Source of the DNA: Deltaproteobacteria bacterium
Lineage (GTDB): Bacteria > Myxococcota_A > Polyangia > GCA-2747355 > JADLHG01
NCBI GenBank assembly: GCA_020848905.1
Contig: JADLHG010000020.1
Span: forward strand, 8,230 to 72,229
Direction: 5' to 3'
DNA: 64,000 nt
Shown here one piece after another: positions 19,675 to 32,231 of the stretch. Numbering within the stretch: the first letter of the stretch is position 1; each line of letters begins with the position of its first letter. A program made the translations under genes and the position numbers. The notes beneath the pieces are model-generated. The model was not told the origin of the DNA, ran no database searches, and was given only the letters and a program-made list of their open reading frames with translations.

Positions 19675-20862
19675 CTAGCCGCGCTTGCGACGCCGGCCGA
19701 AGCCGAAGGCCAGGGCAACGAAGGTGAGCAGGACGAGCGGCAGGCGCGCGTCCGAGCCACCGACGGTGCAGCCGGTGTCCGCCTCCTCGCCCGAGAACTT
19801 CGGTCCCGAGACGCGGGCGTCGCTGCCCGGTGCGGGCGAAGGCCCGGCGTCGGTGCGGCCGGCGTCCTTCTTCACGGGCCCGGCCTCGCCCGACGGACCC
19901 GCGTCGCACTTCACGTAGGTCGTCTCGTAGATCGTCTGGCGGAAGTCGGCCTGCGCGGGGTCCTTCTCGAGGCTGATGTCTCCGGTGAGCGCGCTCCCCC
20001 AGAACTGGAGGTCCAGCTTGGTCAGGCGATCCCCCGCGAGCGCCAGCTTCGCCAGCTCCGGGGTGCCGGCGAGCTGCGCGCTCGAGAGGCTGCCGGAGAA
20101 GCGGAGCTGGCCGGCCACGCCCTTCGTGAGCGTGCGCTGCTGCTCCGCCGCGAGCGTGAAGACGCGCCAGCCGAAGGGTTGGCTCGCCGAGCCGCCGAGC
20201 GCGGCGATGCGCGCCGGGATGACGGCGGTCCGGGTCTCGAAGGCGAGCGTGAGCGGCCCGAGGTCGCCGCAGAGCTGCGAGCCCGGGGGCGGCGCCTTGC
20301 TGTCGGCGGTGATCTTGAAGGCCACGAAGTACCAGCCCTGCGTCACGTAGTGGCCGAAGGTCGCGGCCGAGGCCTTGTCGTAGGGGAACTTGTTCGCGTC
20401 CAGCCAGTCGGTGAAGGCGGCCGCGGTGTCGGCCTTGAGCAGGACCCAGTCGAAGATGCCGACCTGGCCCTTGTTCACGACGGTGACCTGCGAGGCCCCG
20501 GCGTCGGGCCCCTTGCCCCCCCAGCCGCCCGGCTCGGGCACGCCGCGGTCACCGAGGCAGGCGGTGCGCTTCTCGATGCGCGGCGCGGAGAGCGCCTCGA
20601 GCTCGGCGAAGAGCTTCACGTCGGCCAGCGAGGGATTCGCGAGGAGCTTGCCCGGCACGGGGAGCACGAGCCCGAACTCGGCCGCCTGGCCGCAGAAGTG
20701 CGGGTTGAAGACGTAGGTCTCGCTGGTGCCGCGGAAGGCGATCAGGATGCGCTGCGAGGGATCGATGTGCAGGCCGTCGCCGAAGCCGCCGCCGCAGGGG
20801 AGCGCGACGCGCGGCACGAGCACCAGCGTGGAGAGCACGAGAGTCGTCAGGGTGCGCAGCAT
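19675..20862 (-). CDS. secreted protein with a MYXO-CTERM-like tail, co-operonic with the FGE-family gene
   Basis: Signal peptide MLRTLTTLVLSTLVLVPRVALPCGGG. The C-terminus reads GCTVGGSDARLPLVLLTFVALAFGFGRRRKRG. SD GGAGAGG precedes the ATG, 2 bp after the upstream gene's stop. Confidence 0.55.
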   Translation of the reverse strand: MLRTLTTLVLSTLVLVPRVALPCGGGFGDGLHIDPSQRILIAFRGTSETYVFNPHFCGQAAEFGLVLPVPGKLLANPSLADVKLFAELEALSAPRIEKRTACLGDRGVPEPGGWGGKGPDAGASQVTVVNKGQVGIFDWVLLKADTAAAFTDWLDANKFPYDKASAATFGHYVTQGWYFVAFKITADSKAPPPGSQLCGDLGPLTLAFETRTAVIPARIAALGGSASQPFGWRVFTLAAEQQRTLTKGVAGQLRFSGSLSSAQLAGTPELAKLALAGDRLTKLDLQFWGSALTGDISLEKDPAQADFRQTIYETTYVKCDAGPSGEAGPVKKDAGRTDAGPSPAPGSDARVSGPKFSGEEADTGCTVGGSDARLPLVLLTFVALAFGFGRRRKRG

Positions 20863-20864
20863 GG

Positions 20865-21899
20865 CTAGCTCCTCTCCGGGTAGGCGCAACGGAAGCCCAC
20901 GTTGTAGGCCCAGCTCGACGGCAGCTCGGCCTTGCGGCACGAGACGCGCAGCGAGTCGGCACCCGCGGCCCAGCAGCCGCCGCGCATCACCTTCAGGCGG
21001 CCCGAGGCCGGTCCCTGCGGGTCCTTCGTGTCGCTCGTGGCGTAGTAGCCCGCCGCGTACCAGTCCGCGGTCCACTCCCAGACGTTGCCCGCCAGGTCGT
21101 GCGCGCCATAGAGGCTCGCGCCGGCCGGGCGGCGTCCTACGCGGTCCGTATCGCCCACGCACGAACCGGGGCCGCCGTGGTTCGCCTTCAGACAGTCGGG
21201 GGCCGAGTCACCCCAGGGGTAGACGCGCTTCGACGGAGCCGGGCCGCGCGCGGCCTTCTCCCATTCGGCTTCCGTCGGAAGCCTTCCGCCGGCGAAGCGG
21301 CAGAAGGCCTGGGCCTGGTGCCAGTCGACGAAGATCACCGGGTAGTCGGCGAAGCGCGGGTCCCCGTAGTACTCGGCGCGGCGGTGCGAGCCGAGGAGCG
21401 CCGGGCGCGTGCACTGCTTCGCGGCGACGCAGGCCTCGTAGCGGCGGTTCGTGACCTCGTGGCGGTCGAGGCGCAGCCCCGAGACCACCACGCGGTGTTC
21501 CGGGCGCTCGTCGGGGGCGCCCACGCCGGCGGGGCTGCCCATCAGGAAGGCGCCGGCGGGGACGGAGACGGAGCGGCGATCGATCGTGGGCGCAGCGCAG
21601 CTCGCGAGGCCCTCGTCCACCAGCGTGTCGCAGTTGTCGTCGCGCCCGTTGCACTGCTCGGGTCGGCCCGGATGCACGGCCGCATCGCGGTCGTTGCAGT
21701 CGGGGCCCTTGGCGCAGCCGGGACCGTAGCCGTCTCCGTCCTGATCCGAGGCGCAGGAAGCCGCGGCGCCCGGCGCAGCCGAAGCAGCGCGCGCGCGAGC
21801 GGCCCCGGGCTTCTCGCCGGCCCGCGGCGTCGGAGCGAAGGCCCAGAGCGCGCCGACGGCGGCGCATAGGCCCAGGCTAAAGGTAATGGACGTGCGCAT
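20865..21899 (-). CDS. formylglycine-generating enzyme family protein (SUMF1/EgtB/PvdO) with an N-terminal myxobacterial Cys-rich repeat
   Basis: Signal peptide MRTSITFSLGLCAAVGALWAFA. Cys-rich repeat DGDGYGPGC...CNDRDAAVHPG..EQCNGRDDNCD. The FGE-sulfatase core includes HEVTNRRYEAC, LPTEAEWEKAARG, GNVWEWTADWY, RVMRGGCWA and NVGFRCA. Confidence 0.7.
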   Translation of the reverse strand: MRTSITFSLGLCAAVGALWAFAPTPRAGEKPGAARARAASAAPGAAASCASDQDGDGYGPGCAKGPDCNDRDAAVHPGRPEQCNGRDDNCDTLVDEGLASCAAPTIDRRSVSVPAGAFLMGSPAGVGAPDERPEHRVVVSGLRLDRHEVTNRRYEACVAAKQCTRPALLGSHRRAEYYGDPRFADYPVIFVDWHQAQAFCRFAGGRLPTEAEWEKAARGPAPSKRVYPWGDSAPDCLKANHGGPGSCVGDTDRVGRRPAGASLYGAHDLAGNVWEWTADWYAAGYYATSDTKDPQGPASGRLKVMRGGCWAAGADSLRVSCRKAELPSSWAYNVGFRCAYPERS

Positions 21900-22149
21900 G
21901 AGGTCCCTCCTCGTGAGTGTGCCGAGTCGCGCCAGCTTCCTGTGCGGCGCGGATCCCTCGGTTAGCAGGCCGCGTGCCAGACGCCGCACGCCTTCTACCT
22001 ACAATGATCGCAATGGCTTGAATCAGCGTTGGCGCAGCGGGCTGTGCGCCAGCCTGTGCCAAGGTCCCGGGCACAGGGCACGAAATTTCGTGCCGGGCCC
22101 TTCGTGCTGGGCCCTTCGTGCCGCGGGGCCTGGCCGTGCCGCGCCCTGC

Positions 22150-24375
22150 CTACCGGCACTCGTAGCGGTAGTAGGTCTGACCCTCGGGGCTCGTGAGGTC
22201 GATGGGGCAGCAGCGCTGGCTCGGGTCGCAGACGCGGAATTTCATCGAGGGTCCGTAGTAGTGCAGGTCGCAGATGCTCGCCTCGCTCGGGTGGCGGCAG
22301 GCTCCTTCGTAGCAGTACTCGCCGCGGCGGCAGAGTCGGCCGCAGGCCCCGCAGTGGATGGGGCCCTGCGTCGGGCCGCCCGTGCCGACCTTGAGATCCA
22401 CGCAGGCCTTGACGCAGGCGTTCCCGTGCCAGCTCGGGAAGGGGCAGAGCGTCTCGTTCGACTTGCACGGTGTGTACGGCTCGAGGTTCGCCTTGCAGGT
22501 GGCCTCCCGGCCCGGCGCACAGCACGAGCCCCCGATGCAGCTCCAGGTACCCGTGGGCGAGAGCGCCGTGCAGTCCGAGGCGCCCGACGGCGGCGGAATC
22601 CACCAGGCCGGCGGATGCGCTTCCGCCCAGTAGCGCGCGCACGCTTTCGCGTCCGAACAGAAGCTCGCGTCCCCCGTGTAGAACGGCTTGCAGGTGCCGT
22701 CGCTGTCGCAGTACTCGCCGAGCGTGCAGGCGTGGCCGCAGCTCCCGCAGTAGATGGTCTGCGCCTGGTCGTCCGGGTTGGTGTTCGGCTTCTTCGGCTT
22801 CAGCTCGAGGCAGCGCCCAGAGCAGCAGGTGAAGCCCTCCGTGCACGAGGGCGAGCAGGCGACGGTCGGGCACTCCTTCGGTGCGCTGCAGGTGTCGCAG
22901 CGCGCGCTGCAGCTCGCGCCGGCCGCGCAGCCGTTCGGGCTCGCGGTGGGGTCGCAGCGTTCACCGGGGCTCGCCTTGCCATCCCCGCAGCAGACGCACT
23001 CGCCTGGCCGCTGGCTTTGCGTGGGGCGATCCGAGACCCGCCGTCCGAAGGTCAGGTCCGCGGCGGCCGCGCTCGTCCCGTCACGTTCCACGAACGGGCT
23101 TTCCTTCGTGCCGGCCGCCCACGCCGCGGCGAGTGCCGCTCCGAGGTCCGGCTTCGCGCCCGTGACGGAGAAGTTCTTGAGCAGGTAGTGCGTGGCGGGG
23201 CAGGCGGGGAGCGCCAGGCTGGCCTCGCTGGCCTCGTCGCTCGACGCGGAGGTGAAGACGCGCTCCACCCCGGGCACCGCGGCGAGGGCGATCTGAAAGC
23301 CGCCGCTGAAGCAGGCCTCGAGGACGACGGTGATGTGGCAGGCCTTGAGCTGCTTGAGCGCGTCCGCGAGCTCGGCCTCGGAGATGAAGCGCTTGCCGAG
23401 CCGGACGTCCCAGCTCAGCGCTTCGCCCGGTCGCGCTGCGGCGACGAGCTGCCCATTGTCGTAGACCTGACCGTCCTCGCCGTAGAAGAGAAAATCATCG
23501 ACGCCGGCGGCGTTCTTGCGCGTCACCCGTCGCGCGCCGTGGGCGTTCACGAAGACCACCACCTCGTCGCAGCACTCGACCTGCGAGGCGAGGCCCGCGA
23601 GCGCCTGCAGGAAGGTGTCTCCCGCGCCGGGGTCCTTCGCGCCCCAGGCTCCGAGGAGCACGTCGAAGCCGAGCGCGCTCAGGGTGACCCACATCGCGTG
23701 CCCCGTGGCGAGGAGCAGGTCCTCGCCCGTGCCGTTGCCGGTGCCGATCACGCCGTAGCGGCGCGGCGCGCGGCCCGAGGCGCAGGTGACGTGCCGCTGC
23801 GAGGTGCGTAGCAGCACGTCCTTGGGCGGCTCGACGGTCGGCGGCGGGACGACTCGCCCACGGTAGGTGCTGTAGACCGTGAGGGCCTCGCTCGCGAGCT
23901 CGCCGAGGCGGGTCGGAAAGGCCGCGCGCCCGTCGAGGAGCGGCCAGTTCGAGGCGTGCCGGACGCTGACCGCCCCCGAGCTCTCGGAGACCAGCACGTG
24001 CCGCAGCGGGTGCTCGAGCAGCCGATGCGGCGCGTCGTCGATGACGAAGAGAAAGGAGGCCTCGCCGAGCGTCAGGCTATCCCGCCGCCCGTCCACGCCC
24101 AGGCGCGCGCCGGCCGCCGCCACCTGCGGCAGGGCGTAGACGATCACGTCGTGGTCGAGCGTCTTCCAGCCCAGCACCTCGTCGAGCACGCGCCGCTGCA
24201 CGGCGCTGAGCCCGGCCCGCGGTTCGGGCGCGGAACCGGAGGGTGGAGGGCTCTCGCTCGGGCTCTTGCAGGCGCCGCTGACGCCGACGGCCACGGCGCA
24301 GACCAGCAGGCCGAGCCAGGCGGCGGCGCGGCGGCGGGCAGGTTCGAAGCCCTCTTCTCGTTCGCGGCTCGGCAT
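22150..24375 (-). CDS. lipoprotein with a legumain-like (peptidase C13, clan CD) domain and a C-terminal Cys-rich region of about 280 aa
   Basis: Lipobox VGVSGAC. A His-Gly dyad (VVFVNAHGARR) and catalytic Cys motif (HITVVLEACFSGGF) are spaced as in C13 legumain/GPI8 (compare DHG ... EACESG). The C-terminal domain is packed with CxxC/CxC repeats (CGSCGHACTLGEYCDSDGTCKP, CGACGRLCRRGEYCYEGAC). Confidence 0.5.
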   Translation of the reverse strand: MPSREREEGFEPARRRAAAWLGLLVCAVAVGVSGACKSPSESPPPSGSAPEPRAGLSAVQRRVLDEVLGWKTLDHDVIVYALPQVAAAGARLGVDGRRDSLTLGEASFLFVIDDAPHRLLEHPLRHVLVSESSGAVSVRHASNWPLLDGRAAFPTRLGELASEALTVYSTYRGRVVPPPTVEPPKDVLLRTSQRHVTCASGRAPRRYGVIGTGNGTGEDLLLATGHAMWVTLSALGFDVLLGAWGAKDPGAGDTFLQALAGLASQVECCDEVVVFVNAHGARRVTRKNAAGVDDFLFYGEDGQVYDNGQLVAAARPGEALSWDVRLGKRFISEAELADALKQLKACHITVVLEACFSGGFQIALAAVPGVERVFTSASSDEASEASLALPACPATHYLLKNFSVTGAKPDLGAALAAAWAAGTKESPFVERDGTSAAAADLTFGRRVSDRPTQSQRPGECVCCGDGKASPGERCDPTASPNGCAAGASCSARCDTCSAPKECPTVACSPSCTEGFTCCSGRCLELKPKKPNTNPDDQAQTIYCGSCGHACTLGEYCDSDGTCKPFYTGDASFCSDAKACARYWAEAHPPAWWIPPPSGASDCTALSPTGTWSCIGGSCCAPGREATCKANLEPYTPCKSNETLCPFPSWHGNACVKACVDLKVGTGGPTQGPIHCGACGRLCRRGEYCYEGACRHPSEASICDLHYYGPSMKFRVCDPSQRCCPIDLTSPEGQTYYRYECR

Positions 24376-24989: not shown

Positions 24990-26915
24990 CTAGAAGGTAC
25001 CGGTTACCCCCACCATCCCGCCCCCCGGTGCGGGGCCGAAGGCCAGGTTCAGGTTGAGGTCCGGGTCCTCGCGGTAGAGACGCAGCATGCGTTCCATGGG
25101 GGTCTCCATGTAGCGCAGCGAGACGCCGAGGCCGAAGAGGAGCGCGCTCATGGCTCCGCCCATGACGTAGATCGCGGCGGGGAGGTTGGTGCTCGACAAG
25201 CGGGCGTCCACGATGCCGATCGCCACGGTGGCACCGAGGAGCAGGCCCCCCTCGACGAAGGCCAGCGCGGAGACGAGGCGCCGGCGGCGGGCCTCGCGTT
25301 CGGCGAGCTCGAGGAGGTGCGCTTCGGTGCGGGCCACGACGGACTCGAAGCTCGCCCCGGGGCGTCGGAGCTCGTCTTCGAAGGCGGCGTAGGCCTTCTC
25401 CCCCTCCGAGCGCGCGAAGAGCCGCAGGAGGCCGGTGGCCGCGAGGGCGCCGCCCCCGCCGAGGAGCACGATCGCGGAGATCTTGGTCGTCTGGTCGAGC
25501 TCGCCGCTCTTCATGCCGAGGATCACGCCCCCCGAGGCGGCCACGACCAGGCCCCCGAGGGCGCTCGTGCCGGCGAGGGTCAGCCGGTCGGCGCGGTCGG
25601 CGCGGGCGAGCGCCGCCAGGTAGTGCCGCATGCGCACCTCGTCGCGCCAGGAGATGCCGAAGACCTCTTCGGCCGCCGGGTGCCGTCGTTCGCGCGCGTA
25701 GGCTTCGGGGCCGAAGGGCTCGGCGAAGAACTCCTCGTAGAGCGCGTCGTCCCCGCGGGCGAGGAGTGGCGTCGGGCGCGGGGTGAGCATCACCGAGGCG
25801 GTCGAGGTGGGCAGGCGGATCTCGCGCAGCGTGGGGCGCCCCCCTTTGCCGCGGGCCGCGACGAGCTCTTGCACGATGGCGCCCTCGGTCACGGGCATGG
25901 GCAAGACCAGCGTCAGCTCGCGCCCCCGCTCCTTGTGGACGTCGAGGAGGCGCGTCCCCTGGAGGTCCCGCACCCAGACCCGCTGCGCCGGCGGGCCGAG
26001 CACGAGCTTGCGCCCCACCGCGCGGTCCACGGCGAACAGCGAGGCGCCTCCGTTCTGGTAGGGCCCGCGTGCGAAGACCTTGGGGCGGAAGTGCTCGTTC
26101 TTGATGCGGCGATTCGCTATCGCCACGAAGGCCGCGAGCTCGTCGTACGAGACGCGCCCGTCGCCGTTCGCGTCCGCGGCGCCGGAGAGGCCCGAGCGCA
26201 CCTCGTGGCTGAAGATCCCCGACTGCAGCTCCGACCATTCGTAGACCTCGCCGGCCGCGCTCGTGGAGAGGAAGACCCCGACCTGCGGAAAGCGCTCCAC
26301 GAAGCCGAGCTTCAGGTCCTTCGGGGTGGCCCAGCGGCGGCCGCCGGCCTTGCGCGGGCTGATCACGAAGAAGGAGTTGCAGCTGTCGAGGATCAGGTGC
26401 GCGCGGTGGGCGGGGACCTTTCCCAGCACCTCCCGCTCCAGCTCCTCGGGCCCGAGCCGGCCGTCCTCGAGCTCGAGGTAGCCCTTGCCGCGGTCCACTT
26501 GCCCGTGGCCGGCGAAGACGAAGTAGAAGACCGTGTGCAGTCCCTTTGCACGGGCCGCGCGCACCGCGTCGGCGAGCTCGCGCACGGCCTGACGCAGCTC
26601 GGCGCGCCGAGGGGCCCGCGCGGTGGCCCCGAGCCCCGGATAGAGCGCGGCCGTGGGACGATCGAAGCGCGTGAGCAGGCGCAGGTGCCCGGGTTCGGTG
26701 ATGGTGCGGAAGACCTGCACGTAGCGCGCCCCGTCGTCGTCGGCGTACTGCAGGTTCGGTCGGTGCGGCAGGAGGCTCCGGTTGTTCGTCACCACGAGCG
26801 TGAAGCCGACCTCGGAGGCGGCTTCGACGGGCGACACACTGGCGAGGAGCAGGGCGGCCAGACCCGCCAGCACACCGAACGGTCTGGAACCCGTCGCGAG
26901 CCGACGCCTCCTCAT
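24990..26915 (-). CDS. signal-peptide protein with a caspase-like (clan CD, C14-like) domain, an EF-hand-like Ca-binding loop and four C-terminal TM helices
   Basis: The ATG at 26913..26915 overlaps the anti-sigma gene stop (ATGA). Signal peptide MRRRRLATGSRPFGVLAGLAALLLASVSPVEAA. His-Gly dyad FVFAGHGQ and Cys motif HLILDSCNSFFV match the caspase/metacaspase pattern (HG ... D-x-C). DANGDGRVSYDEL is an EF-hand-like loop. Four hydrophobic helices lie in the last roughly 200 aa. The 810-aa track ORF over-extends upstream. Confidence 0.45.
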   Translation of the reverse strand: MRRRRLATGSRPFGVLAGLAALLLASVSPVEAASEVGFTLVVTNNRSLLPHRPNLQYADDDGARYVQVFRTITEPGHLRLLTRFDRPTAALYPGLGATARAPRRAELRQAVRELADAVRAARAKGLHTVFYFVFAGHGQVDRGKGYLELEDGRLGPEELEREVLGKVPAHRAHLILDSCNSFFVISPRKAGGRRWATPKDLKLGFVERFPQVGVFLSTSAAGEVYEWSELQSGIFSHEVRSGLSGAADANGDGRVSYDELAAFVAIANRRIKNEHFRPKVFARGPYQNGGASLFAVDRAVGRKLVLGPPAQRVWVRDLQGTRLLDVHKERGRELTLVLPMPVTEGAIVQELVAARGKGGRPTLREIRLPTSTASVMLTPRPTPLLARGDDALYEEFFAEPFGPEAYARERRHPAAEEVFGISWRDEVRMRHYLAALARADRADRLTLAGTSALGGLVVAASGGVILGMKSGELDQTTKISAIVLLGGGGALAATGLLRLFARSEGEKAYAAFEDELRRPGASFESVVARTEAHLLELAEREARRRRLVSALAFVEGGLLLGATVAIGIVDARLSSTNLPAAIYVMGGAMSALLFGLGVSLRYMETPMERMLRLYREDPDLNLNLAFGPAPGGGMVGVTGTF

Positions 26916-27745
26916 CGCGCACCTCGCAGCGTCAGGGACCACTCCTGCACGTGCGCCTCGGGAAAGAGCCGCGCGAGCGAGGGGGCCTTCCCGGCGTCGC
27001 GCAGGAGCGCCTCCACCTGCTTCACCGAGCGGCGCTGCCGCGAGACGACCGAGACGGCGCGCAGGAGGCCGGGCTTCGCGTCGGGGGCGAAGACCTCGTG
27101 GAGCATCACGCGGCGCCCCCGCGGCAGGTCGAGCGCGAGCGGAGCCTTCGCCGGGTCGTCCCAGCGGGGGGCCGCCCAGTGCACCTCTCCCCCGGCCTCG
27201 ACGACGAAGACCAGCAGATAGAGCGGCGTGGGGGTGAGCCGGCTCACCTCGACCGCGAGACCCTCGTCGGCCGCGAGCAGATCGTGCGCGTTCAGGCGCC
27301 GGGGAGCGCCGTGCCGCTTTGCCGCGTAGAGCTCGACCCCCGTCAGCTCCTTCAGGCTCTCGGCCGTCGGACCGCCGCCGCGGGCCTGAAAGGTCTCCGC
27401 GCGACCGCCGGTGTGGCGCCACAGATAGACGCAGAGCGGAACGGTCACCGCGAGCACCGTGGCCGCGAGCGCGTAGGGGAGCCAGGAGGCGCGCGACGTC
27501 GCGGTGGGCGAGGGGTCGAGCCGGGCCATCGTGCGCGCCACGAAGGCCGCGGTGTCGGGCGAGGCGTCAGACGACACGCCTGGGGCCGGCGAGGCGATGG
27601 CCGCGAGCGTGACCTCGAGCCGAGAGGCGCGCGACCGGCACTCGCCGCATTCACCGAGGTGCGCCTCGAGGGCGCGAGCGCGCGCCACGGCCACCTGCTC
27701 CTCGCGCAGCGCAAGCAACTCGTCGTCGCTGGGGCAGCTCGTCAT
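26912..27745 (-). CDS. anti-sigma factor (zinc-finger HxxxCxxC type) with one TM helix
   Basis: HLGECGECR motif near the N-terminus, a single TM helix (LPYALAATVLAVTVPLCVYLW), then a periplasmic domain. Its start overlaps the sigma gene stop by 4 bp and its stop overlaps the next gene's start by 4 bp. Confidence 0.6.
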   Translation of the reverse strand: MTSCPSDDELLALREEQVAVARARALEAHLGECGECRSRASRLEVTLAAIASPAPGVSSDASPDTAAFVARTMARLDPSPTATSRASWLPYALAATVLAVTVPLCVYLWRHTGGRAETFQARGGGPTAESLKELTGVELYAAKRHGAPRRLNAHDLLAADEGLAVEVSRLTPTPLYLLVFVVEAGGEVHWAAPRWDDPAKAPLALDLPRGRRVMLHEVFAPDAKPGLLRAVSVVSRQRRSVKQVEALLRDAGKAPSLARLFPEAHVQEWSLTLRGAR

Positions 27746-28338
27746 GCGGAAACCTCCAGTCGGGCGCGTAGCGCGCGCAGACCCAAAAAGACGCGGGAGC
27801 GCACGGTGGCCTCGGGCGCGTCGACGATCGCTCCCACCTCGGCGTACGAGAGCCCTTCGCCGAAGCGCAGCAGCACGGCCTCGCGTAGCTTGGGGGAGAG
27901 ACCCCGGAGCTCGCGGTGCACACGTTCCGTGCGTTCGCGCCGGAGGAGCGCGTCGAGCTGCTCGGCGCGGTGCGACGGCTCGTTTGCCGCCGGGGCGTCC
28001 TGGAGCACGCGCTCGCGGCGAAAGAACCCGCGACGCGCGTTGCGGCAGACGTTGCGCACGATGGTGAAGAGGTACACGGCAAACTGCCCGTCCGGCCGAT
28101 AGCGCGCCCGGGCCTGCCAGAGCCGCAGAAACGCCTCCTGGGCCAGGTCCTCGCTGCGCGCGCCGTCCCACTTGGCGCAGAAGCTCCGCACCCGTCGCTC
28201 GTGTCGCGCGACGAGCGCGGCGAAGGCCTCGCGCAACCCGGCCGCCGCGAGCTCCATCAGCTCGTCGTCGGAGCGTGCCGCGAGCCCGCCCGGTTCGGGG
28301 CGCGGAAACGGCAGCACCTTGGGCTCGAAGCCGGGCAT
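27742..28338 (-). CDS. ECF (sigma-70 family, RpoE-like) RNA polymerase sigma factor
   Basis: Region 2 and region 4 motifs (AQEAFLRLWQARARY..., FTIVRNVCRNARR, LSYAEVGAIVDAPEATVRSRVFLGLRALR). About 198 aa, typical of group IV sigma factors. Confidence 0.8.
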   Translation of the reverse strand: MPGFEPKVLPFPRPEPGGLAARSDDELMELAAAGLREAFAALVARHERRVRSFCAKWDGARSEDLAQEAFLRLWQARARYRPDGQFAVYLFTIVRNVCRNARRGFFRRERVLQDAPAANEPSHRAEQLDALLRRERTERVHRELRGLSPKLREAVLLRFGEGLSYAEVGAIVDAPEATVRSRVFLGLRALRARLEVSA

Positions 28339-28611
28339 CTAGGTACCAGAACCCCCCTAGGCCGGTTTCGTTTAGCAGGGGCGGCGTTCTTTTCCTAGGC
28401 AGGCCGCCCCGCCGGGTGTCTCGCCGCCGCCCCGTAGCCCGCACGACCCCCCGGCGCCCCTCGCCCGTCCTGGCCAGCGGCCCAGCCAGCTCCCGCCCTG
28501 CGGGTCCTCCCACGAGCCCCGCGAACTGCCTATCCTTTTCACGCCCGCCGGCCGTCGTCGGTTGGTCCAGATGTTGCTGTCTCTTGTTTGCACAGGACGC
28601 TGGCCCCACCC

Positions 28612-30285
28612 ATGCCCCGACGGTACAGACTGTTCGTACGTCTCTCCGTGGCCCTCGCGCTGCTTCTGGCGGCCGCGGTGGGTCTCGAGCGACCCAGCGC
28701 CGCCGCGGGGCCAGGCGCGCTCGCGCGACGGTTCTTCGCGGGGCTCGCCAAAGGGCGGGTGAAAGGCTCGCGCGAGCCCGGCCTCGTGCTCGCGGCCAGC
28801 CCCAGCCAGCCGGTCGTGACGTCGCTCTTCGCCGTCGCGCGCAAGGTCGCACGTGGCGGGGCGCTCCATCCGGTCGGGATCGAGCCTTTCTCGAACGACG
28901 AGCTCAGCCTGCGCGTCCCGGCCGCTGTCCAGGGACGATCGATCGTGGTGGCGCAGCCCGCGGAGGCGCGCGAGCCCTCGACGGCGCTCTTCCGCACCCT
29001 GCTCGCGGTGGCGGCGAGCCAGAGCAACCTCGCCTCCTCGGTCCACGTGGTCCTCGATCGCGGCCTCGCGAAGCGCTTCGACCCGGCCTTCGTGGCCACG
29101 CTCTTCTCCGCGCTACACGCGGACTCGCTGCGCTACGCCGATGCGCACGGCGGCCCGCTCGAGCGACTTCTGCGCCCGCTCCGCGGTTCCGCCCTGGCCC
29201 AACGCTTGGGCGTCGACGGACCCCTCGTTCCTCGGCCGGTGCACCTGCCCCGCGAGGGACGCCGTTCCAAGCGCTCGGGCAGCGCCGCTCCGCCGCTGCT
29301 CTGGAGCGGTCACGGCTACCCCGAGCTGGCGCGGGGCGTGGGCGAGGCGATGGGGCTCGCGCCGCGCTTTCTGCCGACGGAGAAGGCCTTCCAGGGCCGC
29401 CAGATCCTCCCCGAGGACCCGGCCGGCCGACGCGTCTATCTCCTGCAGACCAAGCGCCTCGGCGATCCCGAGGCCCTGCACCGGGACCTCTTCGAGGTGC
29501 TCTACGCCGCCTGGCAGGCCAAGCAGCGCGGGGCCGCCGAGGTCACTCTCGTCATGCCCTATCTGCCCTACTCGCGCTCCGATCGCATGGATACCGCCGG
29601 CACCACCGTGGGCGCCGCGGTGCTACCGCAGCTCGCGCGCGCCGTCGGCGTGGACCGCGTGGCCTTCTACTCGGTGCATCAACCCCAAGAGGTCGGCTTC
29701 TTCCTCGGGCAGAAGATCCAGGTGCTGCACGCCTCGGGGGAGGCGGTCCTCGCCCCGGCGGTGGCGCGCCATCTGAAGGCCAAGCTCACGCCGAAGGAGC
29801 TCGCCAAGCACGTACGGGTGCTCGCGCCGGATCCGGGGGCACGCAAGCGCGCGCTGGTCTTCGCGCGCCTGCTCGCCGCCGAGCTCGGCCTGCCGGAGGT
29901 CAAGGTCGTCGTGGCCGAGAAGGAGCGGCACGGCCGCGACGTGAAGACCCGCTTCACCGCGAACGTGCGCAAGGCGGTGCTCGTAGCTATCGACGACGAG
30001 ACGGCGAGCGGCAAGACCCTCGCGCAGCTCGTCGAGCCGGCGCTCGCGAAGGGTGCGACCTCGATGCTCGCCGCGGTGAGCCACCTCACGGGGCCGGCCT
30101 ACCGCCTGCTCGACAGCTCGCGGCTCGAGCGGCTCTTCGCCCTCGACACCGTGCCGCAGCCGCGCGAGCACCACGACAACGCCAAGATCGAGATCGTGAG
30201 CGTGGCCCAGGCCGTGGGCCGGCTGCTCACCACCCTGGATGGGAGAGGGGACCTCTCGAAACAGCTCTTCTGGGAGCACGAATAA
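28612..30285 (+). CDS. ribose-phosphate pyrophosphokinase (PRPP synthetase)-like protein with a Sec-type signal peptide and an N-terminal extra domain of about 190 aa
   Basis: Signal-like N-terminus MPRRYRLFVRLSVALALLLAAAVG. The C-terminal roughly 340 aa align with Prs: VYLLQT.., EVTLVMPYLPYSRSDR (compare PYFGYARQDR), AVGVDRVAFYSVHQPQEVGFF (compare VDRVLTVDLHAEQIQGFF), VLAPDPGARKRA (compare VVSPDIGGVVRA), and the PRPP loop VLVAIDDETASGKTL (compare VLVDDMIDTGGTL). Residues about 35-215 have no recognisable family. Confidence 0.7.
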   Translation: MPRRYRLFVRLSVALALLLAAAVGLERPSAAAGPGALARRFFAGLAKGRVKGSREPGLVLAASPSQPVVTSLFAVARKVARGGALHPVGIEPFSNDELSLRVPAAVQGRSIVVAQPAEAREPSTALFRTLLAVAASQSNLASSVHVVLDRGLAKRFDPAFVATLFSALHADSLRYADAHGGPLERLLRPLRGSALAQRLGVDGPLVPRPVHLPREGRRSKRSGSAAPPLLWSGHGYPELARGVGEAMGLAPRFLPTEKAFQGRQILPEDPAGRRVYLLQTKRLGDPEALHRDLFEVLYAAWQAKQRGAAEVTLVMPYLPYSRSDRMDTAGTTVGAAVLPQLARAVGVDRVAFYSVHQPQEVGFFLGQKIQVLHASGEAVLAPAVARHLKAKLTPKELAKHVRVLAPDPGARKRALVFARLLAAELGLPEVKVVVAEKERHGRDVKTRFTANVRKAVLVAIDDETASGKTLAQLVEPALAKGATSMLAAVSHLTGPAYRLLDSSRLERLFALDTVPQPREHHDNAKIEIVSVAQAVGRLLTTLDGRGDLSKQLFWEHE

Positions 30286-30311
30286 GGACGGGATCGAGGG
30301 AAAGGGAAAGG

Positions 30312-31349
30312 ATGAGGGAGATGAGACGCACGCGCTGCACCACTTCGATCGTCGCCGGGTTGCTCGCCGCGACGCTCTTCGCCGCACTGCCCGCCGGCGC
30401 GACCAAGCGCACGGGCAAGCAACCCACCGACCGTATCCTTCTGCCGCGCGTGAGCTCGGAGCGGGCGGTGCGCGAGATCGGCCAGGCGATCGTGCGCAAG
30501 GTCCTCGCCATGGGCAAATCGGGGGTGGTCCTCGGGCTCTCGGGTGGCTCGGACTCCACCGTGGTCGCCGGCATCACCAAGCGCGCCTTCGACGCCTACA
30601 ACCGGCAGAACCCGGACAAGCCGCAGCTCGAGGTGGTGGGGATGATCCTCCCCTCGAAGACCAATACGGCGCAGGACACCGCGGACGGCGTCCTCGTGGC
30701 CAAGACGCTGGGCATCCGCTACGAGGTGGCGAGCATCGAGCCGCTCGTGCGCGCCTTCAAGAAGGTCAACCGCGCGGCCATGAAGAACTCCTTCACCAAG
30801 GGGAACACCATGTCCGAGCTTCGCGCCGTGGTGCTGCACACCAAGGCGGCCTCGGACACCGACGCGCAGGGACGTAACAAGTTCGTGATCGGGACCGGCA
30901 ACCGCGACGAGGACGTGGAGACGGGCTTCTACACCCTCTTCGGGGACGGGGCCGTGCACTTCAGCCCGATCGGCAACCTCTCCAAGCGGCACGTCTTCCA
31001 GCTCGCGCGGTGGTTCGGCTTCATGGACATCGCGCGCAAGGAGCCCTGGGCGGGCCTCGAGGCGGGGCAGACGGCCTTCAAGGCGCTCGGCTATCACTAC
31101 GCCCTCGCCGAGCTCGTGAACCGCGGCGTAGAGCAGGGCTTCACCGCCGAGGTCCTTGCGCGGCAGCCCCAGGTGCTGCGCCGGGCGGGCAAGGACCTGG
31201 GCGACTACCAGAGGCTCTTTGGCGCGCCGAAGTACGCGACGGTTCGCGAGCTCGTGGACGCCATCATCTGGCGCAAGGAGCATATCGCCAAGCCCAAGGG
31301 CGAGCTCGTTCGCCCCGAGGTGGCCGGCGTCACCCTGACCTATAGGTAG
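30312..31349 (+). CDS. nadE: NH3-dependent NAD+ synthetase (NadE) with an N-terminal Sec-type signal peptide
   Basis: PP-loop VLGLSGGSDS. FVIGTGNRDEDVETGFYTLFGDGAVHFSPIGNLSKRHVFQLA aligns with E. coli NadE [40 protein letters not shown]. The N-terminus MREMRRTRCTTSIVAGLLAATLFAALPAGA/TKR is a classical n-h-c signal. The mature core aligns from about residue 30. Confidence 0.8.
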   Translation: MREMRRTRCTTSIVAGLLAATLFAALPAGATKRTGKQPTDRILLPRVSSERAVREIGQAIVRKVLAMGKSGVVLGLSGGSDSTVVAGITKRAFDAYNRQNPDKPQLEVVGMILPSKTNTAQDTADGVLVAKTLGIRYEVASIEPLVRAFKKVNRAAMKNSFTKGNTMSELRAVVLHTKAASDTDAQGRNKFVIGTGNRDEDVETGFYTLFGDGAVHFSPIGNLSKRHVFQLARWFGFMDIARKEPWAGLEAGQTAFKALGYHYALAELVNRGVEQGFTAEVLARQPQVLRRAGKDLGDYQRLFGAPKYATVRELVDAIIWRKEHIAKPKGELVRPEVAGVTLTYR

Positions 31350-31358
31350 GATCGGACC

Positions 31359-32231
31359 GTGCGGCTCAGGCGTCTCACCCTCCTCGTCGCGCTGCTCCTT
31401 TGCAGCGGCTCGCCCGCCTGGGCCAAGCTCCCGGCGGGGGCCGACGCGACGGTGCTCGTCGAGGGGGACCCGCGTACGCGCTTTCGGGTGGCGGGCCTCG
31501 ACCTCGCCTCCGGGCTGAAGCCCGGCACGCGCATCGCCCTGCTCGGGGCCTCCGTAGATCCCATCTCGCTCGCGCATCTGGTCCTCGCCGCGCTGCCGCT
31601 CGTCGATCCGGCGGTGCGCGCCCAGCTCGGCGTGGACCAGGTCTGGATCGTTCCCTCGCCGCCGCGACCGGACAAGGCCCAGCGCGTGCCGAACGGCCGG
31701 CGCTTCGCCTGGACGCGGCTCGCCGCGCGCTACCTGCGCAAGAAAGGCCTTCCGGTCTACGCCACCGACGTGGAGCTGAGGCTCGCGAAAGGCGGCTTTC
31801 GTGGCACCTATCAGCTCCTGAAGGCCCTCGAGCGGCGCTTCCCCGGGGTCGAGCTGAGCGTGATCGTGGGCGAGGACGTCTGGAACGACCTGCCCACGAG
31901 CAAGTGGCGCAACGGCCTCGGTGTGGTGCGCGAGCATTCGCTCTTCGTGGCCCTGCGGGGCGATCACGCGGACCCGAAGAAGGCCAAGGCGCGCGTGGTG
32001 AAGGAGGCGCTCGAGCGGCAGGCCCGGCAGGTGATCCTGCTCCCCGACGCCCAGGAACCGGGTCTGCGCGAGCGACTGACCCGGCTCCTGCCGCGGGGCT
32101 TCGACCTCAAGCTGCTGCCGACCCTCAGCAGCACTGCCCTGCGTGAGGCCTTCGCCCGTGGGGAGCGCTCGCCCGTCGGCGTGCTCCCCGCCGTGGCGAG
32201 AGCCATCCTGCGCGCTGGCTCCTACCGCTAG
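31359..32231 (+). CDS. NadD-like nicotinate-nucleotide adenylyltransferase homolog with a signal peptide and a degenerate HxGH motif
   Basis: Signal peptide MRLRRLTLLVALLLCSGSPAWA/K. NadD family motifs are present: IVPSPPRPDK (compare IIPNNVPPHRP), VIVGEDVWNDLPTSKW (compare IIGQDSLLTFPTW) and LSSTALRE (compare ISATIIRE). The N-terminal nucleotidyltransferase motif is LLGASVDPISLAHL instead of FGGTFDPxHxGHL, so the first His is replaced by Ser and the Gly by Ala. Confidence 0.6.
   Translation: MRLRRLTLLVALLLCSGSPAWAKLPAGADATVLVEGDPRTRFRVAGLDLASGLKPGTRIALLGASVDPISLAHLVLAALPLVDPAVRAQLGVDQVWIVPSPPRPDKAQRVPNGRRFAWTRLAARYLRKKGLPVYATDVELRLAKGGFRGTYQLLKALERRFPGVELSVIVGEDVWNDLPTSKWRNGLGVVREHSLFVALRGDHADPKKAKARVVKEALERQARQVILLPDAQEPGLRERLTRLLPRGFDLKLLPTLSSTALREAFARGERSPVGVLPAVARAILRAGSYR

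Follow-up and report, generated by a model that had tools for sequence, protein, structure and literature searches.

What does a caspase-like protease do in an operon with an ECF sigma factor and its anti-sigma factor? A preliminary description of this locus had placed three minus-strand genes here, each overlapping the next by 4 bp, and had suggested an envelope switch in which the protease might cleave the anti-sigma factor. The gene layout holds. In the window (the whole 64-kb stretch of DNA that was analyzed), the genes for the sigma factor, the anti-sigma factor, and a 641-aa protease are three minus-strand ORFs (Table 1), and both junctions, at 27742-27745 and 26912-26915, read ATGA, with the stop codon of one gene lying on the start codon of the next.

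Table 1. Features of the sigma/anti-sigma/protease operon, in window coordinates; residue numbers refer to the protein named.
Feature	Position	Strand	Basis
ECF-type promoter motif CTAAACGAAACCGGCCTAGGGGGGTTCT	28348..28375	-	Conserved motif upstream of sigma gene
-35-like TAAAC	28370..28374	-	Part of conserved promoter motif
-10-like GGGGTTCT	28348..28355	-	Part of conserved promoter motif
ECF sigma factor, 198 aa	27742..28338	-	Sigma70_r2, Sigma70_r4_2, TIGR02937
ZAS anti-sigma factor, single-pass, predicted zinc-binding, 277 aa	26912..27745	-	ATGA overlap with sigma stop
Anti-sigma C4, candidate fourth zinc ligand	27734..27736	-	Invariant column in alignment
Anti-sigma zinc-finger motif H29-x3-C33-x2-C36	27638..27661	-	Invariant columns in alignment
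Anti-sigma TM helix (the only one), residues 89-112	27410..27481	-	AF2 secondary structure and hydrophobicity maximum
Anti-sigma juxtamembrane F119-Q-A-R122-G123, candidate site-1 cleavage site (A-R/G)	27377..27391	-	Invariant R122, G123
Anti-sigma periplasmic beta-sandwich domain, possibly DUF4384-like, residues 135-273	26927..27343	-	
Metacaspase-like protease, predicted exported, membrane-anchored, 641 aa	24990..26915	-	ATGA overlap with anti-sigma stop
Protease signal peptide, residues 1-32	26820..26915	-	Sequence reading; hydrophobic segment 12-34; AF2 helix 13-25
Protease caspase-hemoglobinase catalytic domain (clan CD, C14-like), residues 35-285	26061..26813	-	
Protease catalytic H137	26505..26507	-	FAGH137G motif
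Protease catalytic C179	26379..26381	-	LD177-S-C179NSF motif
Protease EF-hand loop D248-A-N-G-D-G-R-V-S-Y-D-E259	26139..26174	-	EF-hand_5, family profile, conservation
Protease beta-sandwich, about residues 290-372	25800..26048	-	AF2 strands 292-368, pLDDT about 90
Second A386-R387-G388 motif, between protease beta-sandwich and membrane module	25752..25760	-	Conservation
Protease membrane module, two helical hairpins, residues about 445-604	25104..25583	-	Kyte-Doolittle, AF2
Protease C-terminal beta-hairpin ending G-x-F-COOH	24993..25055	-	AF2 strands 621-629 and 632-640

The first two genes are what they had been taken for. The sigma factor, of the stress type, matched Pfam Sigma70_r2 (E = 9e-15) and Sigma70_r4_2 (E = 2e-12) as well as NCBIfam TIGR02937 (sigma70-ECF; 91.7 bits, cutoff 42.9), and its 198 residues, with regions 2 and 4 only, agree with the size of about 200 aa that defines ECF (group 4) sigma-70 factors. 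Its neighbor is a single-pass anti-sigma factor with the H29/C33/C36 zinc-finger motif and one TM helix (89-112); the zf-HC2 match is weak in the window protein (E = 0.016), yet present in 38 of 41 family members. With this motif in an N-terminal helical domain and a gene adjoining that of the sigma factor, it belongs to the class I ZAS proteins, for which binding of zinc and of the sigma factor is predicted. Its ectodomain resembles DUF4384 (PF14326) only weakly (best E = 0.013).

The 641-aa protein has the caspase-hemoglobinase alpha/beta fold of clan CD (C14), and its signal peptide, HG and DxC motifs, EF-hand loop, and four C-terminal hydrophobic segments are all present, as first described. 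Signal peptidase likely cuts at VEA32/A33. H137-G138 and C179 are kept in 62/62 orthologs. Profile searches gave a divided result: the window protease had no match to Pfam PF00656 (C14) at E <= 0.1, whereas 14 of 30 full-length homologs did, the best at E = 3.4e-7. NCBIfam NF047832, a conflict-system-associated caspase type, matched at E = 2e-4, scoring 20.9 bits where the cutoff is 140. Clustering at 50% identity divides the protease family into more than 1,000 groups, none of which has a name.

The label "caspase-like" is apt for the fold and the His-Cys dyad but not in the sense of Asp specificity, as the pocket points to Arg/Lys. In meta- and paracaspases, an acidic S1 pocket is formed by an Asp six residues after a Leu, which replaces caspase Arg179, and by the Asp two residues ahead of the catalytic Cys, in D-x-C where other members have Q-A-C (PMC2064784). 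Mapping motifs onto that description, we found both the D-x-C and the Leu/Asp pair in the window protease; D177-S-C179 and L55...D61 are each kept in 62/62 sequences, and the S1-pocket candidates are D61, D177, and E226. Basic residues also precede orthocaspase cut sites (PMC6426788). We predict from these motifs that the enzyme is metacaspase/orthocaspase-like, with Arg/Lys specificity.

The protease probably binds calcium. EF-hand_5 matched its loop at E = 2.4e-5, with 24.0 bits falling slightly short of the gathering cutoff of 25.9, and matched 21 of 30 family members. A profile of the family searched against PDB sequences returned EF-hand proteins only, with EhCaBP at E = 2e-4, and loop positions 1, 3, 5, 6, 8, and 12 are kept in 59-62 of 62 sequences. 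The loop (248-259) lies between AF2 helices 229-246 and 257-267, the arrangement of an EF-hand, here single and unpaired. The window protease would bind calcium via an inserted EF-hand loop, whereas characterized eukaryotic metacaspases are known to do so through a cluster of Asp residues.

C-terminal to the catalytic domain lies a beta-sandwich, for which profile comparison found no kinship with that of the anti-sigma factor, and then the membrane module. Kyte-Doolittle windows place hydrophobic segments at 447-468, 479-501, 546-571, and 578-600, and AF2 places long helices at 423-467, 475-500, 523-572, and 581-602. The signal peptide and the membrane hairpins, we infer, would put the protease in the same compartment as the anti-sigma linker. 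The positive-inside rule does not clearly favor this topology: the inter-hairpin loop, which is charged, helical, and about 45 residues long, is rich in Arg and Lys (mean 8.6 K+R) and would sit in the periplasm. The terminal residue of the protein is Phe in 55/62 sequences and W or Y in four. Most of the shorter, one-hairpin protease variants that were examined likewise end in Phe.

Such a module could itself be the business end of the protein, if the metacaspase cut at R387 and freed the two hairpins to permeabilize the inner membrane in a SLATT-type or holin-type manner, with the sigma/anti-sigma pair controlling expression only. The hairpins are Gly-rich and hydrophobic, R387-G388 is conserved just before them, residues 454-547 match NCBIfam SLATT_1 weakly (E = 0.051), and some MAGs carry several copies of the protease gene per genome, all of which, together with the NF047832 match, would suit an effector of cell death or defense. 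We nonetheless consider this very improbable. The SLATT_1 and NF047832 scores are far under their cutoffs, and a fold search with the membrane module returned generic helical matches plus a non-significant one to ExbB. PADLOC-DB 2.0 returned nothing at E <= 1 for any of the three operon proteins, for the C-terminal module of the protease, or for the 741-aa protein encoded downstream, and the adjoining genes are not defense genes. The VOC protein proposed downstream is indeed one (Glyoxalase, E = 2.4e-9). The 741-aa neighbor (22150..24375) had been called a legumain-like C13 protease, an identity that now looks weak: PF01650 matched below its cutoff (E = 0.022, 14.7 bits against 22.8), VNAHG and LEACFSG motifs could be picked out by eye, and a search of PDB sequences gave no match. 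Across 62 loci, neither gene is conserved with the three-gene unit, and neither is a part of it.

Is there, then, a site at which an Arg-specific protease could act on the anti-sigma factor? The motif [F/W]-x-[A/P]-R-G occurs in 68/68 anti-sigma homologs, at a median of about 12 residues past the TM helix. Only eight columns of the alignment are invariant, and R122, G123, and three zinc ligands are among them. The linker that holds the motif (113-126) is predicted to be disordered, with AF2 pLDDT below 50. The motif fits site-1 cleavage by an Arg-specific protease, and the invariant Arg-Gly could alternatively serve another use, such as docking. The cleavage put forward in the preliminary description thus gains an invariant Arg-Gly in a disordered linker and an acidic S1 pocket to receive it; the switch itself we infer.

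A similar tripeptide lies in the protease, where R387 is found in 60/60 non-gap sequences and G388 in 55/60 (otherwise S, A, or T), making A386-R387-G388 a candidate auto-processing or pseudosubstrate site. Conservation of A-R-G in the two proteins would fit their competing for a single active site, and the tight translational coupling of the genes suggests a complex of fixed proportions. Both features are in line with a protease that works alongside the anti-sigma factor as co-sensor or partner and does not cut it, as RseB does with RseA and CnrX with CnrY, binding its beta-sandwich or linker and shielding it from, or exposing it to, another protease. The anti-sigma A-R-G would then be a docked, uncut pseudosubstrate, and the protease would process a ligand protein that comes in, or itself at A-R387-G; the CHAT domain of DdvA is in a resting state and has been proposed as a sensor (PMC11506125). 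We think this improbable, as the dyad and S1 pocket, intact in 62/62 sequences, argue for real catalysis, and a disordered linker with the preferred P1 residue would be hard to keep uncut near an active protease.

The preliminary description proposed looking for the same arrangement in relatives. Among 74 Myxococcota loci with enough upstream DNA, 62 have sigma, anti-sigma, and protease genes in this order on one strand; six further loci found by eye and two with divergent arrangements bring the total to 70/74. The three-gene unit is common to myxobacteria, and the persistence of arrangement and motifs across 62 to 68 independent loci is more than chance. The finding withstood both refuting tests that the preliminary description had set, one on the caspase fold and one on linkage in relatives. 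In the 62 loci, sigma homologs lie directly upstream, at 35-51% identity. Sigma and anti-sigma genes overlap by 4 bp in 54/62 loci; anti-sigma and protease genes do so in 27/62 and elsewhere are separated by a short gap or share a short overlap. The matrices of pairwise identity for the three proteins are correlated (Spearman 0.64-0.68, Mantel p = 0.002), which indicates that the unit has been inherited together. No fourth gene recurs among the 62 loci beyond three closely related ones.

Ahead of the sigma gene, a motif of the form T(C/A/G)AAC(G/A)-N13-cGGTGTTCT stands in a fixed 20-nt register in 31/61 loci, and at +-1 nt from it in some others. In the window, 9 nt separate the end of the motif from the sigma start codon, and the transcript is therefore probably nearly leaderless. 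A PWM for the motif scored 27.1 at this site and 12.0 at the next best on either strand, leaving no second copy in the 64 kb. Because the only strong copy in the 64 kb drives the three-gene operon, all products seen under this promoter are regulators except the protease. It may therefore be the output of the pair instead of its trigger, with the envelope signal sensed through some other site-1 protease or through zinc or redox chemistry of the ZAS domain. The sigma factor would then target mainly its own operon, yielding more of a periplasmic, Ca2+-dependent metacaspase that processes further proteins, either secreted or of the envelope, for instance in development, predation, or envelope repair. 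Many ECF operons have an effector gene downstream. In addition, three loci (L001, L076, and L077) have the protease gene with no detectable sigma/anti-sigma pair upstream, suggesting that the protease may have a role independent of the anti-sigma factor. We rate this alternative as rather unlikely. It leaves unexplained why the Arg-Gly of the anti-sigma linker is conserved in 68/68 homologs at the level of the zinc ligands and why anti-sigma and protease identities co-vary, and it gives no reason for tethering the protease in the membrane beside the anti-sigma factor.

Taking the evidence jointly, we tentatively favor, with confidence slightly short of even, a self-contained envelope unit in which the protease cuts the anti-sigma factor and the freed sigma factor regulates its own genes. 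At rest, the sigma factor would be held at the inner membrane by the cytoplasmic zinc-binding domain of the anti-sigma factor, whose periplasmic beta-sandwich would be tethered to the membrane through the disordered linker. The exported protease would be anchored in the same membrane by its two helical hairpins, its catalytic domain facing the periplasm. A periplasmic signal, most plausibly Ca2+ at the EF-hand and perhaps also the freeing of A-R387-G in the protease itself, would lead to a cut after anti-sigma Arg122 (A-R/G). The resulting stub, with about 10-14 residues outside the membrane, would be taken off by an RseP-type intramembrane protease, as in canonical regulated intramembrane proteolysis, and the freed sigma factor would transcribe its own operon from the conserved promoter. 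Topology, Ca2+ control, anti-sigma cleavage, the S2P step, and autoregulation are all proposals of this scheme. A point against it is that presumed substrate and protease share a promoter, which can equally be read as sigma output.

The scheme has partial counterparts. Canonical regulated intramembrane proteolysis (DegS/RseP on RseA, PrsW on RsiW, signal peptidase on RsiP; PMC8844934) likewise involves a single-pass anti-sigma factor and an extracytoplasmic juxtamembrane site-1 cut, and the window unit would share with it the passing of a short stub to a site-2 metalloprotease and operon autoregulation. However, these known site-1 enzymes are serine proteases or metalloproteases, several encoded outside the sigma/anti-sigma operon, whereas here the candidate is a cysteine protease of clan CD whose gene lies in that operon and is translationally coupled to it. 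Metacaspases and orthocaspases (MEROPS C14B; for example, AtMC4 6w8r, Yca1 4f6p, C. glabrata Ca-bound 7qp1, GSU0716 3bij) share the His-Cys dyad, the D-x-C, the acidic S1 pocket, and, as predicted here, a link to calcium; orthocaspases of bacteria and archaea with EF-hand or FGE-sulfatase additions are on record (PMC6426788). The window protease differs in its marginal sequence similarity (it lacks the Pfam C14 match that 14/30 relatives have) and in being, by prediction, exported, membrane-anchored, and the fixed partner of a sigma/anti-sigma pair.

Two systems related in concept join a caspase-family protease to an ECF sigma factor. The M. xanthus anti-sigma factor DdvA carries a CHAT domain, fused to it on the periplasmic side, by which it has been proposed to make its own site-1 cut before RseP acts (PMC11506125). 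DdvS/DdvA (PMC11506125; PDB 8rot) is found in Myxococcota, as is the window unit, and like the latter in the proposed scheme it holds an ECF sigma factor by a single-pass Cys/His zinc-binding anti-sigma factor and has a periplasmic caspase-fold domain with a His-Cys dyad, for which a juxtamembrane site-1 cut followed by RseP is proposed. The DdvA zinc domain is of the CHCC type, and the predicted ligands of the window anti-sigma factor are C4, H29, C33, and C36. In DdvA, however, the protease domain is fused to the anti-sigma factor within a TPR-CHAT ectodomain of about 900 residues, whereas the window anti-sigma ectodomain is a small beta-sandwich and its protease is encoded as a polypeptide of its own, predicted to be anchored in the membrane by two TM hairpins, C14/metacaspase-like and without TPR, and bearing both an EF-hand loop and a beta-sandwich; nor do CBASS or CRISPR genes lie near the window unit. 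In the craspase (type III-E Cas7-11/Csx29 TPR-CHAT), Csx29 cleaves Csx30, which binds the ECF sigma factor RpoE, and DUF4384 is the C-terminal domain of some Csx30 proteins (bioRxiv 10.1101/2022.08.17.504292). There, as would be the case here, a caspase-family protease acting on a sigma-binding protein alters ECF-sigma transcription, and the DUF4384 of some Csx30 recalls the weak matches on the window anti-sigma ectodomain. The craspase is cytoplasmic, RNA-guided, and CHAT-type, and cuts after Met or Leu, whereas the window unit would be periplasmic, membrane-bound, free of any CRISPR component, and Arg-specific. If its protease does cut the anti-sigma factor, the unit would represent an undescribed variant of protease-gated ECF signaling, akin in concept to DdvA and the craspase.

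The preliminary description of a minus-strand operon encoding an ECF sigma factor, an anti-sigma factor and a caspase-like protein proved accurate in its coordinates, ORFs, ATGA junctions, and domain and motif matches. At both junctions, the start codon of the 3' gene shares 4 bp with the preceding stop. Domain searches identify the 198-aa product as an ECF sigma factor (Sigma70_r2, 9e-15, and Sigma70_r4_2, 2e-12, in Pfam; TIGR02937, 91.7 bits where the cutoff is 42.9). G+C content is ~72% across the whole window, and no further copy of the unit was found anywhere in it. Genes divergent from the operon are apparently unrelated to it.

Features of the operon and its neighbours
Feature	Coordinates	Strand	Evidence or remark
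ECF sigma factor gene, 198 aa	27742..28338	-	ORF
Anti-sigma factor gene, 277 aa	26912..27745	-	ORF
Protease gene, 641 aa	24990..26915	-	ORF
Protease A386-R387-G388	25752..25760	-	R in 60/60, G in 55/60
Protease C-terminal beta-hairpin	24993..25055	-	G-x-F-COOH end
Promoter motif	28375..28348	-	ends 9 nt ahead of sigma start codon (gap 28339..28347)
741-aa Cys-rich putative lipoprotein	22150..24375	-	His/Cys motifs in N-terminal half
FGE-sulfatase domain protein	20865..21989	-	E 2e-53
DUF2330 protein	19675..20859	-	E 4e-28
565-aa protein, ribose-phosphate pyrophosphokinase N-terminal domain	within 28588..32231	+	E 5e-17
NAD synthase	within 28588..32231	+	E 3e-42
290-aa ORF	within 28588..32231	+	without Pfam match

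Scanning a single genome from each species for relatives of the protease, we recovered 80 loci and counted gene linkage in the 74 with at least 1.8 kb of upstream DNA. Linkage in relatives, which the preliminary description had named as a check on its proposal, is kept: by tblastn, sigma, anti-sigma and protease genes follow one another on a single strand in 62 of these 74 Myxococcota loci. At six others (L014, L019, L022, L075, L080, L082) the ZAS anti-sigma gene was detected only by ORF inspection, at two (L062, L064) the sigma/anti-sigma pair is divergently transcribed, at one (L081) tblastn gave a partial anti-sigma match only, and at three (L001, L076, L077) no pair was found. The named loci are all from Myxococcota (Polyangia, Myxococcaceae, Archangiaceae, Kofleriaceae, Anaeromyxobacteraceae and Minicystis), with a few MAGs only broadly labelled. 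In several MAGs the unit occurs two or three times, as in JBKPRZ01 (L005, L062, L081), and cultured carriers include Minicystis rosea DSM 24000, Cystobacter fuscus, Corallococcus exercitus, Pyxidicoccus fallax and Myxococcus llanfairpwll... AM401. With start codons assigned by rule, so that counts are approximate, the 4-bp overlap occurs at the sigma/anti-sigma junction in 54 of the 62 loci and at the anti-sigma/protease junction in 27, the remainder of the latter having short gaps or overlaps. When matrices of pairwise identity are compared between the three proteins, they are correlated (Spearman 0.64-0.68, Mantel p = 0.002).

The conserved unit comprises exactly three genes, because no fourth gene recurs (when downstream ORFs were clustered, no group exceeded three closely related loci) and the VOC, 741-aa and FGE-sulfatase genes of the window are unlinked in relatives by tblastn, save for an FGE-sulfatase homologue in L001. 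Two FGE-sulfatase genes lie near the unlinked protease copy in that locus, possibly by coincidence; FGE-sulfatase domains are reported to be often fused to caspase homologues in prokaryotes (PMC6426788). The window's own FGE-sulfatase protein has an N-terminal MopE-like metal-binding motif, and downstream of its gene lies that of an exported or membrane-anchored DUF2330 protein. The VOC assignment of the first downstream gene holds (Glyoxalase, E 2.4e-9). The 741-aa protein, earlier called a legumain-like C13 lipoprotein, does carry VNAHG and LEACFSG motifs and is a putative lipoprotein, but its Pfam C13 match falls under the cutoff (E 0.022); its C-terminal half matches the MXAN_6577-like cysteine-rich family (NF041328, E 8e-6), and we found neither a match to PDB sequences nor similarity to the 641-aa protein. 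The earlier pairing of the VOC and 741-aa genes with the unit does not extend to relatives, where neither travels with it; a functional link to the unit, if there is one, would be confined to this genome. A scan found no intrinsic terminator 3' of the protease gene, and transcription may therefore read through into the VOC gene here.

Upstream of the sigma genes we found a bipartite motif, T(C/A/G)AAC(G/A)-N13-cGGTGTTCT (also written TCAAC-N15-GGTGTTCT), in a fixed 20-nt register at 31 of 61 loci and 1 nt off it at others. Its first element contains AAC and keeps a constant distance to the second, in line with what we take to be the general ECF promoter pattern. The -10-like element lies ~7-15 nt from the sigma start codon in most loci, which suggests that the sigma mRNAs of this family are leaderless or nearly so; in the window, the 9-nt gap likewise suggests a nearly leaderless transcript. 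A weight matrix scored the operon site at 27.1, and the runner-up reached 12.0 when both strands of the 64-kb window were scanned; since the matrix was built from pattern-chosen sites, the operon score is partly circular, whereas the lack of a second site is not.

The 641-aa protein combines a signal peptide, the motifs FAGH137G and LD177SC179NSF, an EF-hand-like loop (residues 248-259) and four hydrophobic helices. It belongs to a large family, with at least 751 full-length homologues at 90% clustering and 1,049 clusters at E <= 1e-30 when 1.84 billion representatives were searched exhaustively with a profile; the matches named in their source are all labelled "hypothetical protein". The protein's own sequence falls short of a Pfam Peptidase_C14 match, and among 30 aligned family members 14 match Peptidase_C14 (best E 3.4e-7) and 21 match EF-hand_5. 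Comparison of the protease with known proteins gave the highest scores for Arabidopsis metacaspase-4 (19.0) and metacaspase-9 (18.5), followed by legumain (18.0), yeast Yca1 (17.4), GPI transamidase (17.0), bacterial GSU0716 (16.1), animal caspases (about 14) and the DdvA CHAT domain (10.4). In an independent Foldseek search the top rank also went to a metacaspase, the Ca-bound enzyme of Candida glabrata (E 4.5e-6, probability 1.0). We conclude that the 641-aa chain is that of a metacaspase-like protease. The dyad is intact, with H137, C179, D177 and D59-D61 kept in 62/62 genome-derived orthologues.

The S1 pocket of caspases is formed by Arg179, Gln283 and Arg341, whereas meta- and paracaspases have Leu at the first S1 position, a conserved Asp six residues on, and Asp in place of Gln283 (PMC2064784). 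By motif mapping, L55 to D61 and D177-S-C179 of the 641-aa protease fit the latter pattern exactly, and we accordingly predict that it cleaves after Arg or Lys, a specificity reported for orthocaspases (PMC6426788). The mapping rests on motifs because the family profile, searched against PDB sequences, found only EF-hand proteins and gave no residue-level alignment to a metacaspase. Its sole matching region was the EF-hand itself, which found Entamoeba calcium-binding proteins (E 2e-4). This loop, D248-x-N/D-x-D/N-G-x-V/I-x-x-x-E259, is canonical, has a helix on each side, and is kept in 59-62 of 62 sequences.

A candidate substrate-like site for such a protease lies in the anti-sigma factor, which has C4 and H29-x3-C33-x2-C36, one transmembrane helix and a ~150-residue periplasmic domain. 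Its zf-HC2 match is weak (E 0.016), and 38 of 41 homologues match that domain. Mean column identity over the 41 aligned homologues is 35%, with no more than eight invariant columns: the predicted zinc ligands H29, C33 and C36, together with R122, G123, W190, P193 and G226. R122-G123 sits within [F/W]-x-[A/P]-R-G, a motif present in all 68 homologues examined at a median of ~12 residues past the predicted end of the transmembrane helix. Searches of a word-indexed database returned few homologues (3, then 25), so that the AlphaFold model derives from a shallow alignment (overall pLDDT 69); in it, the Arg-Gly motif falls in a disordered linker (residues 113-126, pLDDT <50) between the transmembrane helix (89-112) and a beta-sandwich (135-273, pLDDT ~80). 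The invariant Arg-Gly is left unexplained by the main rival reading, that the protease is simply the sigma factor's output. Consistent with that reading, the protease gene is under the same promoter as the sigma and anti-sigma genes and occurs at three loci where no such pair was found; overall, we consider it unlikely.

The protease carries the tripeptide of the anti-sigma linker itself: A-R387-G follows its own beta-sandwich (about residues 290-372) and a short low-confidence stretch, and precedes the membrane module. We rejected the two beta-sandwiches as homologous, possibly pairing domains (hhalign probability 0.4%). The second A-R-G may serve for auto-processing or as a pseudosubstrate; a non-cleaving partner or pseudosubstrate model, in which the protease does not cut the anti-sigma factor, seems to us distinctly improbable. 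The membrane module consists of two long helical hairpins (four hydrophobic segments) separated by a charged ~45-residue loop, and searches with it gave no informative match (NCBIfam SLATT_1, E 0.051; Foldseek ExbB, probability <=0.54). At the C-terminus, the terminal Phe is kept in 55/62 orthologues and in most of the one-hairpin short variants that we examined, and resembles the aromatic C-terminal signals that PDZ domains or BAM read. These shorter paralogues (L075, L077, L080 and L082, around coordinate 6001 of their loci, or 2714 in L080) are ~510-550 aa long, with D-A-C for D-S-C and one transmembrane hairpin; those of L075 and L082 end in RF, and most copies have an upstream ZAS anti-sigma gene with the A-R-G motif.

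We hypothesize that the protease cuts the anti-sigma linker and thereby releases the sigma factor to transcribe the operon, a tentative model to which we give slightly less than an even chance. The two proteins would share one membrane and expose their functional parts to the periplasm. Once switched on by a signal, the protease would cleave after R122 and leave a short anti-sigma stub as substrate for an RseP-type site-2 protease, setting the sigma factor free. Given the EF-hand, Ca2+ is the obvious candidate signal or cofactor. One feature speaks against this topology: it would put the Arg/Lys-rich inter-hairpin loop in the periplasm. The fuller proposal, a Ca2+-gated, operon-encoded periplasmic metacaspase acting as site-1 protease of a ZAS anti-sigma factor, cutting after the Arg of the invariant, membrane-adjacent A-R-G and restrained by its own A-R-G pseudosubstrate or auto-processing segment, is possible, though taken as a whole we hold it somewhat less likely than not. 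That the unit is a cell-death effector is very unlikely: its support is sub-threshold, and PADLOC defence-system models gave no matches.

In canonical regulated intramembrane proteolysis, the enzymes known to cut site 1 are serine proteases, metalloproteases or signal peptidase. The known system closest to the unit is DdvS/DdvA of M. xanthus, whose anti-sigma factor bears a TPR-CHAT domain in its own chain; this periplasmic domain is proposed to cleave the linker of that chain before RseP acts (PMC11506125). A cytoplasmic analogue is craspase, whose CHAT protease Csx29 cuts Csx30, a partner of an ECF sigma factor (bioRxiv 10.1101/2022.08.17.504292). The unit is distinguished by four features of its protease, which is a separate membrane-anchored polypeptide, is C14/metacaspase-like, bears an EF-hand, and is encoded by a gene translationally coupled to the sigma/anti-sigma pair; no protease/anti-sigma fusions occur among the top 150 family representatives. 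Our search of the literature linking caspases, metacaspases or orthocaspases to ECF or anti-sigma factors found only DdvA and craspase and no description of the unit, and caspases are absent from the main text of the ECF re-classification paper.

To our knowledge, bacterial caspase homologues are numerous, with a substrate or physiological role known for very few. The unit offers a large family of them with a specific, testable candidate substrate encoded in an overlapping gene, a predicted scissile bond between R122 and G123, and Ca2+ as a likely cofactor. Its occurrence in cultured strains makes genetics feasible, and the conserved promoter motif gives a direct route to mapping the regulon. 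If the model is correct, an operon-encoded caspase-clan cysteine protease would join the short list of site-1 proteases in ECF signalling; with DdvA and craspase, the unit would suggest that caspase-family proteins control sigma factors more widely. Under the fuller proposal, clan CD proteases would, with DdvA and craspase, be a general class of sigma-factor activators, and myxobacteria would link envelope to transcription by a caspase-family proteolytic cascade encoded in a self-standing set of three genes, represented by more than 1,000 sequence clusters.
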